Virus record (IMG/VR): IMGVR_UViG_2651869748_000003
Location: 1-22,875 of that record
DNA length: 22,875 bases
Strand: one strand, 5' to 3'
Source of the DNA: a virus
Taxonomy: Duplodnaviria > Heunggongvirae > Uroviricota > Caudoviricetes
Shown piece after piece: positions 1 to 3,588 of the stretch. The position numbers and the translations under genes are program-made. The notes beneath the pieces were generated by a model. It had not been told where the DNA came from. It ran no database searches and saw nothing but the letters and a program-made list of their open reading frames with translations. Position 1 is the first letter of the stretch, and every line of letters begins with the position of its first letter.

Positions 1-517
1 CACCAAGCAGAGCAATAAAACCTGGTCCCTGACGCATCCGGTGGATGACGCAATTACCCTGCTGACACAGGGCGGCAGACTGACCTGTAAGTTCCGCCTC
101 TCAGGCGCACTGACCAACAATCAGTTCGGGCTGGGGATTTATCTGTATACCGATGTAGCGTTACCTGACGTCGTGGCGATGACCGGGACTGGTAACCCGT
201 TCCTGATGTCGTTCTTCACCCAGACCACAGACGGCAAACTGAATCTGATGCATCACAAGAAAGCCGGAAACACAAAGTTGGGCGAGTTCGGGAATTACAG
301 TAACGACTGGCAGACGCTGGAGCTGGTGTTCACCGCCGGCAGTGCCACGGTTACTCCGAAACTGAATGGAGTGGCTGGCCCGGCATTCCAGGTCATAAAA
401 GACAGTCTGACACTGGGGCTGAATGCGCTGACGCTGACGGATATTACCAAAAATGCAGCGTATGGCGTTGAGATAGAAAGTCTGGTGCTGGAGATAAATG
501 CACCGGCATCATCATAA
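1..517 (+). CDS. Hypothetical protein, 5'-partial (reading frame open to the window edge; ORF track starts it at GTG 41)
   Basis: Frame is open from nt 2 with no stop before the GTG at 41, so the gene probably begins upstream of the window. No recognisable motif; not lambda-like; sits immediately upstream of the lysis cassette where lambdoid phages often carry morons. Confidence 0.45.
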   Translation, partial: TKQSNKTWSLTHPVDDAITLLTQGGRLTCKFRLSGALTNNQFGLGIYLYTDVALPDVVAMTGTGNPFLMSFFTQTTDGKLNLMHHKKAGNTKLGEFGNYSNDWQTLELVFTAGSATVTPKLNGVAGPAFQVIKDSLTLGLNALTLTDITKNAAYGVEIESLVLEINAPASS

Positions 518-603
518 AAAGTGAGCCAGCCAAATGGAAGGTATCGTTAAACTCACCGGTAGTGTCAGTGGGTCGTCTGAGATGCCTGCATGAGTTATCA
601 GAG

Positions 604-632
604 CCATCAGTACTTAACTGGTGGCTTTTTTT
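604..632 (+). terminator. Candidate rho-independent terminator (possibly tR'-like) upstream of the holin
   Basis: Stem CCATCAG (604-610), loop TACTTAA, stem CTGGTGG (618-624; one G-U pair), followed by CTTTTTTTATT. Lies between the upstream ORF stop (517) and the holin start (668). Confidence 0.5.
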
Positions 633-667
633 ATTGTTGTCAGCTTCCGGATAACGGGAGACGGGGT

Positions 668-883
668 ATGTACCAGATGGAAAAAATCACAACAGGTGTG
701 TCATACACCACGTCAGCGGTGGGAACGGGCTACTGGTTCCTGCAGTTGCTGGACAGGGTTTCCCCGTCTCAGTGGGCGGCAATAGGCGTGCTGGGGAGTC
801 TGCTGTTTGGGCTGCTGACATATCTGACTAACCTGTATTTCAAAATCAGAGAGGACCGTCGTAAGGCGGCGCGGGGAGAGTAA
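668..883 (+). CDS. S: Class II holin (phage 21 S21-type pinholin), 71 aa, dual-start motif MYQM
   Basis: Two predicted TMDs ([20 protein letters not shown] and [23 protein letters not shown]) and a charged C-terminal tail ([13 protein letters not shown]); close to the S21/EssD sequence as I recall it. GGGAG at 655-659 is 8 nt upstream of ATG 668. The ORF-track start at ATG 590 has no SD and would read through the 604-632 hairpin. Confidence 0.9.
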
Positions 884-887
884 AGCG

Positions 888-1232
888 ATGAAGAAAAAAT
901 ACGAACTGGTTGTTAAAGGGATAAATAATTACCCGAATAAGATTACTGTTACTGTGGCACTGGAAATTGGTGGGTATCCGTCACTGTTGTTGCCAGATGT
1001 GGCGATTAGTCTTGACCGTACTGAAGATGCCACGCTGGAGTTTTACGAAGCTGAGGCGAAAAAGCAGGCGAAGCAGTTTTTCATGGATGTTGCTGCCGGG
1101 TTATGTGAAGGGGATGGTCCGTTGCCGGAAAAGCGCCCCGTAATTTTAGAGGCGCAGGATGTGTTGATAACCTACAGAGGAAAACTACCGGGAATAATTA
1201 CTGGTTCTCTGAAGACTCCACCGCTGGCCTGA
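888..1232 (+). CDS. Hypothetical 114-aa protein inserted between holin and endolysin; no TMD or signal peptide evident
   Basis: ATG 888 is 5 nt after the holin stop with GGGGAGAG upstream (translational coupling). Codon usage looks coherent. Phage 21 and lambda have no gene at this position. Confidence 0.65.
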   Translation: MKKKYELVVKGINNYPNKITVTVALEIGGYPSLLLPDVAISLDRTEDATLEFYEAEAKKQAKQFFMDVAAGLCEGDGPLPEKRPVILEAQDVLITYRGKLPGIITGSLKTPPLA

Positions 1233-1282
1233 AGACTTAACATATCCAGGGATTTGAAATCGATAAACCCTGATAAATATCC

Positions 1283-1816
1283 ATGAACACCAAAATCAAA
1301 TACGGCCTGTCGGCTGCCGTTCTGGCGCTGATTGCCGCTGGTGCGTCTGCGCCTGACATTCTCGATCAGTTTCTGGATGAAAAGGAAGGCAATCACACCA
1401 CGGCATACCGTGATGGTGCAGGTATCTGGACCATCTGCCGTGGTGCCATCATGGTGGATGGCAAACCTGTCGTTCCGGGCATGAAGTTGTCGAAGGAAAA
1501 ATGCGACCAGGTTAACGCCATTGAGCGTGATAAAGCGCTGGCGTGGGTGGAGAAAAACATCAAAGTGCCATTGAGCGAACCCCAGAAAGCGGGGATCGCG
1601 TCATTCTGTCCGTACAACATTGGTCCCGGTAAGTGTTTCCCGTCGACGTTTTATAAACGAATTAATGCAGGTGATCGCAGGGGAGCGTGTGAGGCGATTC
1701 GCTGGTGGATTAAGGACGGTGGCAGAGACTGCCGTATTCGTTCAAACAACTGCTACGGTCAGGTATCCCGTCGTGACCAGGAGAGCGCGCTGGCGTGCTG
1801 GGGTATCGACAGATAA
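1283..1816 (+). CDS. R: SAR endolysin (T4-lysozyme-like, GH24) with N-terminal signal-anchor-release segment
   Basis: N-terminal weakly hydrophobic Gly/Ala-rich segment (GLSAAVLALIAAGASAP) followed by E-x8-D-x5-T catalytic spacing (EGNHTTAYRDGAGIWT). Immediately downstream of a pinholin, as in phage 21. Confidence 0.9.
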   Translation: MNTKIKYGLSAAVLALIAAGASAPDILDQFLDEKEGNHTTAYRDGAGIWTICRGAIMVDGKPVVPGMKLSKEKCDQVNAIERDKALAWVEKNIKVPLSEPQKAGIASFCPYNIGPGKCFPSTFYKRINAGDRRGACEAIRWWIKDGGRDCRIRSNNCYGQVSRRDQESALACWGIDR

Positions 1817-1905
1817 GCAGAATATTTTGCTGAAAAATAAAGCATGGCCACGCGGGCGGATAACATGAAATCCTGCGAACTGGCGAAACGTAAGTGAATA
1901 AAAGT

Positions 1906-1945
1906 AAAAACCCCGTTTGTTGGCACCAAGCGGGGTTTTGTGTTT
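1906..1945. terminator. Stem-loop with flanking A-tract and T-tract (candidate bidirectional terminator or attenuator) between endolysin and spanin genes
   Basis: AAAAACCCCG (1906-1915), 15-nt loop, CGGGGTTTT (1931-1939), then GTGTTT. The stem arms are perfectly complementary. Confidence 0.45.
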
Positions 1946-2014
1946 CCTGACTCCGGAAAAGTCAAAGGAGAAAGTGTGTTTGATTTTAGCAAACTGATTC
2001 GGGAGATTCGAGTG

Positions 2015-2113
2015 ATGGCTGAAAAATTATCCACCTGGAAGTTCATTCTTATCTGGCTGGTGTTTGTGATTATGGCCTCCGGTTATTTCATCGGTCAGAT
2101 ACGCTGGTGGTGA
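2015..2113 (+). CDS. Candidate 32-codon micro-ORF encoding a single-TMD peptide ([32 protein letters not shown])
   Basis: GGGAG at 2001-2005 is 9 nt upstream of ATG 2015. Stop TGA 2111-2113 is 1 nt before the Rz ATG 2115. Hydrophobic core flanked by K and R/W. Below the size cutoff of the supplied ORF track. Confidence 0.35.
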
Positions 2114-2114
2114 A

Positions 2115-2579
2115 ATGAACCGCGTACTGTGCGTGGTCATCATTGCCCTGCTGGTGGCCTGTGGTGCGCTTAGTCTGGGGCTGAATCATTACCGTGATAA
2201 CGCCATTACCTACAAAGCCCAGCGCGACAAAAATGTCAGAGAACTGAAGCTGGCGAACGCGGCAATTACTGACATGCAGATGCGTCAGCGTGATGTTGCT
2301 GCGCTCGATGCAAAATACACGAAGGAGTTAGCTGATGCGAAAGCTGAAAATGATGCTCTGCGTGATGATGTTGCCGCTGGTCGTCGTCGGTTGCACATCA
2401 AAGCAGTCTGTCAGTCAGTGCGTGAAGCCACCACCGCCTCCGGCGTGGATAATGCAGCCTCCCCCCGACTGGCAGACACCGCTGAACGGGATTATTTCAC
2501 CCTCAGAGCGCGACTGATAATAATGCAAAAACAACTTGAAGGGGCACAGCTATACATTCGAGAGCAATGCCTCAGATAA
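2115..2579 (+). CDS. Rz: i-spanin Rz (inner-membrane spanin subunit)
   Basis: N-terminal TMD ([18 protein letters not shown]), coiled-coil-like periplasmic region, Rz1 embedded in the +1 frame. Similar to lambda/DLP12 Rz as recalled. Confidence 0.9.
2335..2517 (+). CDS. Rz1: o-spanin Rz1 (outer-membrane lipoprotein), wholly embedded in Rz
   Basis: AAGGAG at 2322-2327 is 7 nt upstream of ATG 2335. Signal peptide with lipobox LVVVGC; proline-rich mature part ([15 protein letters not shown]); 60 aa as in lambda Rz1. Confidence 0.85.
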
Positions 2580-2886
2580 AAACCGGCCAAGGATAATCCG
2601 CTGAAGATTCGCCGGTGGCTAAAGTGTGCCAAGAGTTCAATTTACGCAATTACTCCAGTCGATGCTATGCACCGTCTTTGTGAAGTCAATGGATACCTGA
2701 TTTATTTCTGTGCGCTGTATCGTCGCTGTACTCTTGCATTAATTATGACTGTAGCCTGACGGGGAACTCCTTCTGCACAAGTGTGGGGGAATAATCAAAA
2801 ACGATGCACACCGGGGTTACCGGGTACACATATTTCATCATGCCAGCGAGTCCGGTTCTGGCACGGAAGAAACCGGACGTTATGAT

Positions 2887-3297
2887 TTAGTGCGGAAATA
2901 TTTGTGTAGTGTTCTGAATGTTCTCAGTAAAGAGTAATGAATTATCAAAGGTATAGTAATACCTTTTGTTTTCGTGGATATTTGTAATCCATCTGAAAAC
3001 CCCTGCTGTAGCAAGATTTTTCCTGTATTCGTAAAATGATAACTCTCCTGATTTGAATCCTTTTAAGGTGGCTTCTATAAGGCATTTATTTTTTGAAAAT
3101 CTTACATTTACAACCTTACCCTGTCCTTTTATTAAAACCGTATTATCGTTTTCAAGAACAAGATGAATATTCTCTGTGGCTAAATAGTAAATGTAATGTG
3201 AGACATTGTGACGTTTTAGTTCAGAATAAAACCAGTGATAGTTTAAATTATTTCGCACTTTATCGAATATTTGTTTAAAAATGGCAACCTGAGCCAT
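2887..3297 (-). CDS. DUF1398-like protein (lambda right-end ORF / E. coli YbcV-YdfO family), about 136 aa
   Basis: Minus-strand ORF in the AT-rich segment. Start chosen at the second Met (MAQVAIFK...) because GGAAGG lies 7 nt upstream; the track start at 3312 has no SD. Resembles the lambda right-end ORF and YbcV as recalled. Confidence 0.75.
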
Positions 3298-3354
3298 TGT
3301 AGTACCTTCCATGTGATATGAGGGGGCGTAGTCTGCACGATTATCTAAATTGCT

Positions 3355-3588
3355 TCAATCTGGTCTGACCTGTTTTCTGAGCAATTCAGTAATGTCACTC
3401 TTTTCTTTGTTTGCTTCAGGCGAAACTCTTTTTACTGAGCACAGTCTCCGGCGGCAGGCTTCAATGACCCAGGCTGAGAAATTCCCGGACCCTTTTTGAA
3501 CAAGAGCGATGTTAATTTGTTCAATCATCTGGTTTGGAAATCGGATGTTGCGGGTTGTTGTTCTGCGGGTTCTGTTCTTTGATGACAT
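3355..3588 (-). CDS. Small ribbon-helix-helix-like protein (YlcI/YnfO, DUF3950-like; lambda right-end ORF homolog), 77 aa
   Basis: GGGGA is 6 nt upstream of ATG 3588 on the minus strand. Arg/Thr-rich N-terminus, then a strand-helix-GxS-helix pattern (NIRFPNQMIEQINIALVQKGSGNFSAWVIEACRRRL). Same position and orientation as the lambda right-end ORF as recalled. Confidence 0.75.
   Translation of the reverse strand: MSSKNRTRRTTTRNIRFPNQMIEQINIALVQKGSGNFSAWVIEACRRRLCSVKRVSPEANKEKSDITELLRKQVRPD

Follow-up and report, generated by a model that had tools for sequence, protein, structure and literature searches.

Introduction

In the Qin and DLP12 prophages of Escherichia coli K-12 the endolysin gene R and the i-spanin gene Rz overlap by 4 nt, and the phage DNA described here raises the question of why the same two genes should be held 298 bp apart. 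The window, a 22,875-nucleotide stretch of Caudoviricetes DNA (IMG/VR record IMGVR_UViG_2651869748_000003, positions 1 to 22,875), contains an R gene that ends at position 1816 and an Rz gene that starts at 2115. Since R and Rz overlap in Qin and DLP12, and the R gene of the window is 83% identical to K-12 rrrQ, the R-Rz spacer represents an insertion relative to these prophages. A preliminary description of the spacer, whose length and coordinates we confirmed on the sequence, drew attention to a hairpin followed by a small open reading frame (ORF), and considered that the ORF might encode a membrane peptide modulating spanins or holin, be a remnant, or have arisen by chance, and that the hairpin might reduce the level of spanins compared with endolysin.

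Here, we describe a computational analysis of this hairpin-ORF unit and of its relatives in other phages and prophages. We present evidence that the ORF is a conserved gene for a 45-residue membrane peptide, that the hairpin belongs to this gene, and that the two travel together among the late operons of temperate phages. Furthermore, we consider how the expression of the peptide may be held in check, and by what layers of control.

Results

The spacer ORF encodes a conserved single-pass membrane peptide

The elements of the hairpin-ORF unit are as follows (SD, Shine-Dalgarno sequence).

1907-1939, both strands: intrinsic-terminator hairpin, with arms 1907-1919 and 1927-1939 and a 7-nt loop, 1920-1926
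1940-1975, plus strand: leader of 36 nt with a small stem-loop in which UUUCCU (1943-1948, the tail of the U-tract) pairs with SD1
1965-1970, plus strand: SD1, AAGGAG, 5 nt before GTG 1976; an SD lies at this place across the family
1976-2113, plus strand: 45-codon ORF for a single-pass membrane peptide (GTG read as Met); WP_000459345.1, PHROG 6632
2001-2017, plus strand: internal SD2, GGGAG (2001-2005), and ATG 2015 (Met14), with a spacing of 9 nt
2042-2101, plus strand: coding region of the transmembrane helix, residues 23-42, Kyte-Doolittle mean 2.1
2102-2117, plus strand: Rz junction, CGC TGG TGG TGA A ATG, comprising the C-terminal RWW, the stop codon and a weak SD-like GGTGG for Rz
1991-1983, minus strand: predicted extended -10 element TGCTAAAAT, overlapping codons 3-6
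1977-1897, minus strand: cis-antisense RNA predicted at about 80 nt, its 5' end near the GTG, complementary to SD1 and the leader, and ending at the hairpin and UUUUUACUUUUAUU

The preliminary description had reported an ORF of 32 codons. Its SD (GGGAG, 9-nt spacing) and its stop codon, the TGA at 2111-2113, separated by 1 nt from the Rz ATG at 2115, are as described, and the SD and the ATG at 2015 are conserved; this ATG, however, is codon 14 of a frame that begins 13 codons earlier and is open from GTG 1976 to the TGA, a total of 45 codons. The product is a full-length member of PHROG 6632 (residues 1-45 on positions 1-45 of 45, E = 6.4e-30) and is identical in all 45 residues to WP_000459345.1, a RefSeq 'hypothetical protein' annotated by PGAP in E. 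coli DEC5D and 98-3133; in other genomes PGAP leaves 100%-identical DNA unannotated. Both entries are names only, giving no function and describing neither hairpin, leader nor dual start, and a literature search found nothing on the gene, on WP_000459345.1 or on PHROG 6632. Searches of Pfam, NCBIfam, PADLOC and PDB sequences with the peptide returned no family match, and it matched neither the holin Pfam families nor the spanin families PF03245, PF06085 and PF10721.

The suggestion of a small membrane peptide was borne out, with hydropathy placing one transmembrane domain (TMD) at residues 23-42 and an AlphaFold2 model (predicted local distance difference test score 85) showing helices at 4-17 and 20-44 with a break at 18-19 between them. 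The layout is that of an amphipathic N-terminal helix, a break and a transmembrane helix ending in RWW. The peptide is essentially without a periplasmic domain, and its C-terminus, QIRWW, carries no charged tail.

Conservation in related prophages and synonymous-site constraint had been named at the outset as tests of the ORF, and both were found. The frame is intact, with a start codon at the same position, in 23 of 23 non-redundant homologues, and frameshifted copies are few (P0026, P0027 and P0031). Compared with the window copy, the Salmonella and E. fergusonii peptides are 67% and 82% identical, with ratios of nonsynonymous to synonymous substitution (dN/dS) of 0.13 and 0.09, respectively (range 0.09-0.15 among the three copies). 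Synonymous sites are saturated in codons 15-45, where the proportion of synonymous differences (pS) is 0.7-0.9, versus a pS of 0.23 in codons 2-13, a stretch in which GAT3, TTT4, AGC5 and GAG10 are invariant. Members of the family share the pattern xDFSK(L/I)IRE(L/I)RxMxE(K/Q)LPxW(K/R)F followed by the TMD, and a large subset ends in (R/K)WW; the length, start codon, Met14, Trp-Lys/Arg-Phe motif and TMD are conserved from the Enterobacterales to a Pseudomonas phage. The possibility that RWW is conserved merely as the ribosome-binding site of Rz was ruled out: RWW is a property of the peptide beyond any signal for Rz, because it is retained where no spanin gene lies downstream. Judged by these patterns of substitution, the ORF is a real gene under purifying selection.

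A terminator hairpin belongs to the small gene

The hairpin with A/T flanks noted in the preliminary description is real and larger than the 9-10 bp first given, the stem at 1907-1939 comprising 13 pairs when A-U pairs are counted, 6 of them G-C. On the plus strand the stem is followed by TTTTGTGTTT, with a U-run at 1936-1949 and an A-run 5' of the stem, and on the minus strand by TTTTTACTTTTATT. It has the G+C-rich stem, short loop and 3' U-run of a Rho-independent terminator, and folds with an energy of -18.9 kcal/mol on the plus strand (z = -3.2 relative to shuffled sequences) and -15.8 kcal/mol on the minus strand. Four terminator-like matches were observed in 2.5 kb, versus 2.2 expected; because one such match per 2.5 kb is unremarkable, the significance of the hairpin rests on its conservation.

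This conservation is extensive. In an alignment of 17 loci 97.3% of the cells pair, and 6 of the 13 pairs have changed on both sides in a compensatory manner; none of 500 shuffles reached this level of pairing, and slid registers were only 36-59% paired. In all homologous loci read, the metagenomic contig L098 excepted, the ORF is preceded at 30-36 nt by a G+C-rich hairpin with a U-run; an AAAGCnAAAA motif upstream of the stem is kept in all homologous loci. The stems themselves differ in sequence (ACCCCG/CGGGGU, GCCCCG/CGGGGC, GCUCCG/CGGAGC and AACCCG/CGGGUU), and where small ORFs occur in tandem, in E. fergusonii (L093) and in the metagenomic locus L200, each has a hairpin of its own. Because the hairpin is found upstream of homologues of the small ORF with compensatory changes in its stem, we assign it to this gene, and comparison of the loci indicates that it is not part of R or Rz. 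Its strand could not be assigned from the asymmetry of G-U and A-C pairs, which differed in no consistent way (10 of the 17 loci favour the plus strand). Rfam, whose families include the AgvB, AsxR, STnc and Isr sRNAs, gave no match at the gathering score anywhere in the window, and at E <= 10 only terminator-like noise between 1700 and 2250 (rimP leader, His leader and RsmY).

The leader and two conserved, probable translation starts

The 17 leaders that were folded form structures of about -7 kcal/mol, and in the relatives the stem in which the SD region pairs with the U-tail or with a CCUUG box covaries (CCUUG/CAAGG, CGUUA/UAACG and CCUG/CAGG). Of 18 sequences, 16 start with GTG or TTG. The entire intergenic gap of SEN34 measures 87 nt and is occupied by the hairpin and leader. 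No plus-strand promoter-like site was seen in 1817-2114 of the window, the interval between hairpin and ORF included.

Met14 is present in all 18 aligned sequences, and 20 of 23 non-redundant sequences have an SD core 4-11 nt before it, where synonymous shuffling would give 2.7. The block at codons 9-10 reads GGGAG in the window; across the family Glu10 is always GAG (17/17) and Arg9 always CGG or AGG. This conservation of an internal SD at synonymous sites suggests two starts, and Met14 is probably a second translation start that would give a 32-residue form beside the 45-residue form.

A conserved promoter-like element predicts an antisense RNA

The early codons of the gene contain, on the minus strand, the element TGCTAAAAT, which is close to the consensus of an extended -10 and is the sole TGNTAWAAT in the 22.9-kb window. 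Within the first 36 nt of the gene TGnTAnnnT is found in 21 of 23 non-redundant homologues, versus the 2.6-2.8 expected from synonymous shuffling. Among the 18 aligned homologues the codons that make up the element are invariant (Asp3 is GAT in 15/15, Phe4 TTT in 12/12 and Ser5 AGC in 17/17), while other degenerate codons vary (Phe23 is TTT in 10 and TTC in 8; Glu16 is GAA in 6 and GAG in 4). Saturation at the other synonymous sites argues against simple inertia as the cause of this conservation. The motif is also kept where the residues at this place differ (HISR, EFIK, HLSR and ILS, with Ser encoded by TCA); loci with such changes in which it survives include L097, L099, L200, L202 and the Pseudomonas phage.

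The promoter element and the terminator together predict an antisense RNA of about 80 nt. The corresponding 81-nt RNA folds into a single-stranded 5' region, a stem-loop and the terminator (z = -3.4).

The cassette occupies many late-operon contexts

Within lysis cassettes the unit follows endolysin genes of five types, encoding a PF00959 lysozyme, GH19, GH108 or CHAP enzymes, or a 138-residue enzyme without a Pfam match. The i-spanin gene downstream encodes either Rz (PF03245) or the unrelated DUF2514, and the accompanying holins belong to four unrelated Pfam families. The TGAnATG spacing is kept before Rz in E. coli, Salmonella and Citrobacter braakii and before DUF2514 in E. fergusonii; in Edwardsiella and Citrobacter sp. 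Cu233 the ORF lies in the endolysin-spanin gap with other spacing, and in a Providencia contig, which ends before any spanin gene, it follows a CHAP-domain lysin.

In the functional phage SEN34, as in Pantoea, Yersinia and Serratia, baseplate spike and wedge genes flank the same unit, and in Sodalis, Izhakiella, Brenneria and Symbiopectobacterium it follows tail-fibre or DUF2612 genes. It is also found after a portal gene, inside a Mu-like head operon and, in the Pseudomonas phage, in the tail region. Because it occurs among baseplate, tail-fibre, portal and head genes, the unit is not tied to spanins or holins. From the comparison of these neighbourhoods, hairpin, leader and gene constitute a mobile cassette that lands at late-operon gene boundaries of many temperate phages.

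The R-Rz gap is a hotspot for small membrane-peptide genes, and a (R/K)WW end is common to several of their families. In E. coli JJ1886 (L005, 1793-2141), 7/2 (L006, 1657-1985), O157:H7 G5295 (L007, 2222-2335) and TUM13881 (L008, 1578-2141) the gap contains up to four different single-TMD small ORFs (PHROGs 6632, 4906 and 1115/4493), and the ORF adjacent to Rz again ends in IRWW with TGAnATG spacing. In E. fergusonii (L093, 2663-3140) two hairpin-led cassettes stand in tandem, the first encoding an unrelated 50-residue transmembrane peptide that ends in KWW; TGGTGGTGATATG follows both, as would be seen had the second cassette come in through recombination at the junction.

The family is widespread in the Enterobacterales and extends to a Pseudomonas phage

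An exhaustive profile search gave 41 cluster representatives at 50% identity, nearly all of 32-86 residues. A scan of one genome per species found copies in Citrobacter, Edwardsiella, Yersinia, Pantoea, Sodalis, Brenneria, Izhakiella, Providencia, Trabulsiella, Symbiopectobacterium and Serratia. Phages matched by tblastn include H-19B, dozens of Stx1a, Stx2a and Stx2c phages, Rac-SA53, SPN3UB, FSL SP-016 and SEN34, as well as Pseudomonas phage YMC11/02/R656; in these records the ORF is usually unannotated. At least 80% of the spacer is carried by 1337 of 5426 complete E. coli genomes, about a quarter. Scans of viral contigs and metagenomes returned mostly near-identical E. coli copies and added little diversity.

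Two of the phage records bear comment. The Actinobacillus phage vB_Apl-pPE4 (PP818812.1, 37933-38067, match H151) carries an ORF of the E. coli type with 91% identity, as does Escherichia phage Rac-SA53, and its host label or purity is perhaps questionable. The i-spanins of H-19B and 1720a-02 are described as 'significantly longer' than those of other lambda-family members (Kongari et al. 2018, PMC6139136, legend to Fig. 3); in H-19B the cassette lies immediately 5' of Rz, and the called i-spanin start may be worth checking.

Organization of the surrounding lysis region

The genes around the cassette, and the part of the spacer that precedes it, are the following.

Up to 517: 3' end of a SASA-type esterase gene
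668-883: S21-type class II holin, with the MYQM motif
888-1232: YdfR-family ORF of 114 residues (PHROG 406), between holin and endolysin
1283-1816, plus strand: R endolysin (Pfam Phage_lysozyme, E = 2e-24)
1817-1905, plus strand: R-proximal part of the spacer; the A-rich 3' end, about 1896-1910, is the terminator U-tract on the minus strand
2115-2579, plus strand: Rz i-spanin (Pfam Phage_lysis, E = 1e-52)
2335-2517: Rz1 o-spanin, embedded in Rz (Pfam Rz1, E = 5e-20)

The R product has a hydrophobic N-terminus resembling that of signal-anchor-release (SAR) endolysins, and Rz shares 93.5% identity with rzpD over its 3' 387 nt. The approximately 90 nt after R, 1817-1905, are 85-91% conserved among E. 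coli prophages irrespective of what follows and align partially to Salmonella phages; no conserved ORF or promoter was found in this interval. Attenuation by a leader peptide was considered for a 17-codon ORF at 1843-1896 and rejected, since this ORF is not conserved and in TUM13881 (L008) has a TTG start and an early stop.

The slot of the YdfR-family ORF is filled in O55:H7 DEC5D by a 185-residue variant, and the gene is an uncharacterised but conserved part of the lysis cassette. Downstream of Rz, the minus strand of the window at 2887-3588 carries DUF1398 (YdfO-like) and YlcI/YnfO-family genes convergent with the lysis genes; the same two families lie near the lysis genes of Qin and DLP12.

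Discussion

A proposed scheme for gated expression of the peptide

The question of what the spacer contributes finds a partial answer in its conservation, and we propose that it contributes a mobile, tightly gated, late-expressed membrane peptide whose gene has a layout like that of a type I toxin-antitoxin system. We give this reading, in which both the function and the antisense RNA are predictions from sequence, a probability of roughly 0.45. Within a lambdoid late operon, a terminator such as the one at 1907-1939 should be passed by Q-modified polymerase. Synthesis of the peptide would be confined to transcripts that have run through its own terminator, those of Q-antiterminated late transcription, and the peptide would be a late lytic product residing in the inner membrane with its N-terminus inside and RWW at the periplasmic face. 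Three layers would silence it at other times: the upstream terminator; a weak GTG or TTG start whose SD is partly paired with the U-tail of the terminator; and a convergent antisense RNA of about 80 nt that would be driven by the -10 element in codons 3-6, cover SD1 and the start codon, and end at the bidirectional hairpin. The internal SD and Met14 would allow a second form of 32 residues to be made. Membrane-active peptides that do harm when leaked are typically silenced in several layers, and gating of this kind would favour a potentially toxic membrane-active peptide over a spanin-specific factor. Such a peptide would aid or time the lytic endgame as a membrane-perturbing accessory.

Because the stop codon lies 1 nt before the Rz ATG, with only the weak GGTGG in front of it, translation of Rz is probably coupled to that of the peptide by termination and reinitiation. 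The idea that the ORF modulates spanins or holin survives in this limited form: its position 1 nt before the ATG of i-spanins of two unrelated families fits coupling, but the unit also stands outside lysis cassettes, and modulation is at best a local side effect exerted through coupling.

Several findings weigh against a gated, antisense-guarded toxin. A literature search found no report of a transcript, footprint, toxicity or localisation for any member of the family, and the promoter that a classic type I toxin has of its own was not seen upstream. The hairpin folds equally well on both strands, so that nothing ties it to the minus strand, and in the E. coli prophages L006 and L007 the same hairpin and leader stand before other small-ORF families that have no -10 motif. 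The candidate antisense promoter has a weak -35 (3/6), the homologues in L098 and L199 are without TGnTAnnnT, and since the homologues share ancestry the P-values from shuffling overstate their independence. Selection of AT-rich early codons for translation initiation may explain GAT, TTT and AAA, though not the invariant AGC. Finally, enteropathogenic E. coli (EPEC) E2348/69 was considered as a source of transcript evidence and set aside: its prophages PP2 and PP5 have overlapping R and Rz and no cassette, and because they are without the spacer the RIL-seq data (ligation and sequencing of interacting RNAs) from this strain are silent on the cassette.

Comparison with known systems

Like the toxins of type I systems such as hok/sok, the window ORF encodes a hydrophobic single-TMD peptide of fewer than 60 residues, its SD is sequestered in structure, and a cis-antisense RNA over the SD and start, with its promoter in the 5' codons, is predicted. 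In symE/symR the antisense RNA likewise starts just inside the toxin ORF and covers the toxin SD and start. The peptide is unrelated in sequence to Hok and to other known toxins, and because there is no toxin promoter the cassette fails one defining feature of type I systems, having instead an upstream terminator and late read-through. There is a phage-borne precedent: in the Stx2 prophage Sp5 the level of HokW, the toxin of the type I module hokW-sokW, goes up on induction, and HokW doubles phage release.

The antisense RNA predicted here has the geometry of PasA, PasB and PasC, validated Hfq-bound small RNAs (sRNAs) of 79-85 nt from EPEC E2348/69 prophages that are encoded opposite to late genes, each terminating at a hairpin that directly follows the late gene before it. 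The Pas RNAs have no sequence similarity to the window, lie in esterase-holin or tail I-J gaps, and have no paired conserved membrane-peptide ORF. PasB itself (L203, 1461-1544; E2348/69 1466261-1466343) occupies the gap of tail genes I and J in antisense orientation to the late operon; on the opposite strand a 22-codon ORF, MKINVKELFLLLGQKNTNAAKL, which PasB overlaps, starts just after the shared hairpin in a cassette-like layout, and its product is not hydrophobic. The esterase-holin gap of the window (518-667) contains a terminator-like hairpin at 600-628 with a T-run and measures 150 nt, versus 447 nt in E2348/69; a search for PasA or PasC in it by blastn found no similarity.

Two in-frame starts are conserved in the small lysis-region membrane proteins S105/S107 of lambda and S68/S71 of phage 21, as are the two probable starts of the window ORF. 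The holin forms differ by 2-3 residues, versus 13 in the window peptide, which also differs from holins and antiholins in having one TMD, no charged C-terminal tail, no match to a holin Pfam family, and relatives outside lysis cassettes.

The window ORF further resembles gp15 of HK97, a small single-pass superinfection-exclusion protein of the inner membrane whose gene is likewise inserted between late genes that are adjacent in related phages. Gp15 has 62 residues, an N-terminal TMD and an annotated downstream terminator, and is unrelated to the window peptide in sequence; its gene has a promoter of its own upstream. As morons were defined in HK97 and HK022, the cassette has the extra DNA (298 bp) but neither the sigma-70 promoter upstream nor the terminator downstream.

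Alternative explanations

The same data can be read as an ordinary late accessory gene with a non-toxic role in the membrane and no antisense RNA, in which the hairpin arrived together with the inserted gene and serves as terminator, insulator or 3'-end stabiliser and the constraint in codons 3-12 reflects translation signals only, namely AT-rich early codons and the internal SD. We consider this unlikely on balance but a serious possibility, for the observations made directly (protein conservation, covariation of the hairpin, late-operon contexts) all fit it, as do a hairpin without strand asymmetry, the same hairpin and leader before ORF families that have no -10 motif, and the lack of an Rfam family match in the region. 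What it leaves unexplained is the terminator that is always 5' of the gene, even in tandem copies and in essential structural operons, the use of AGC for Ser5 in 17 of 17 sequences, and the survival of TGnTAnnnT through the amino acid changes in L097, L099, L200, L202 and the Pseudomonas phage. An improbable reading makes the peptide a lysis-specific factor that binds or regulates the i-spanin, a pinholin or the SAR endolysin, with the hairpin setting the ratio of Rz to R. The ORF does stand directly before the i-spanin gene, with TGAnATG spacing, in E. coli, Salmonella, E. fergusonii and C. braakii, in the endolysin-spanin gap of Edwardsiella and Citrobacter sp. Cu233, and after the CHAP lysin in Providencia; it has the N-in, single-TMD topology of Rz, and other small transmembrane ORFs ending in (R/K)WW fill the same gap in relatives. 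A dedicated partner is hard to reconcile with cassettes far from lysis genes (baseplate, tail-fibre, portal and Mu-like head contexts), with an RWW end that is kept where no spanin follows, and with the absence of any one conserved partner among four kinds of holin, five of endolysin and two of i-spanin.

Expression from the lysogen, as a moron like HK97 gp15 that would mediate superinfection exclusion or alter a host membrane protein, is very improbable. Insertion between genes that are neighbours in related phages, a small single-pass membrane protein as product, and a type of site known for morons (HK97 gp15 lies between tail genes) all speak for it, but no promoter precedes the ORF, the terminator directly upstream reverses the promoter-gene-terminator order of gp15, and the peptide shows neither sequence similarity to gp15 nor a PADLOC match. 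That the ORF arose by chance or is a decaying remnant, with an incidental hairpin, is scarcely credible, and these two suggestions of the preliminary description are refuted by purifying selection, by a frame intact across the family, and by its spread from E. coli to a Pseudomonas phage. The ORF is indeed very short and missed by annotation in most records, and a few copies (P0026, P0027 and P0031) are frameshifted; a dN/dS of about 0.1 with saturated synonymous sites, the length, start, Met14, Trp-Lys/Arg-Phe motif and TMD conserved as far as the Pseudomonas phage, covariation of the hairpin, and homologues that are not recent copies of one sequence are not what a chance ORF or a remnant would leave.

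An extension of the gated-peptide proposal is more speculative, and we regard it as doubtful: the cassette could represent an undescribed class of phage-borne type I-like module, combining a dual-start peptide, a bidirectional terminator and a Pas-like sRNA, that moves among Enterobacterales and Pseudomonas phages. Under this extension the anti-SD-like 5' end of the sRNA, CUUUCUCC, might also let it target host mRNAs in trans in the lysogen, and the peptide would, once the prophage is induced, contribute to collapse of the membrane or to the timing of lysis.

Implications

Taken from its sequence features, the cassette is a gene for a small membrane protein led by a terminator, probably with two starts and probably guarded by an antisense RNA, and it is widespread. 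By analogy it appears akin both to morons and to type I-like small toxins with sRNAs. Roughly one in four complete E. coli genomes carries the gene, as do many Shiga toxin (Stx) phages, H-19B among them; it is mostly unannotated and the literature is silent on it. A hairpin, a leader of about 35 nt, a GTG start and xDFSKLIRExRxM provide a signature by which annotation could find further members, and the cassette accounts for intrinsic terminators within late operons. Should the proposed gating fail, a well-supported gene for a small membrane protein that deserves a name would still stand. If it holds, prophages of medical importance gain a small membrane effector, and perhaps an sRNA, in their lysis and late regions, and the cassette would constitute a clear case of a small-protein gene that moves with its own 'off switch'.

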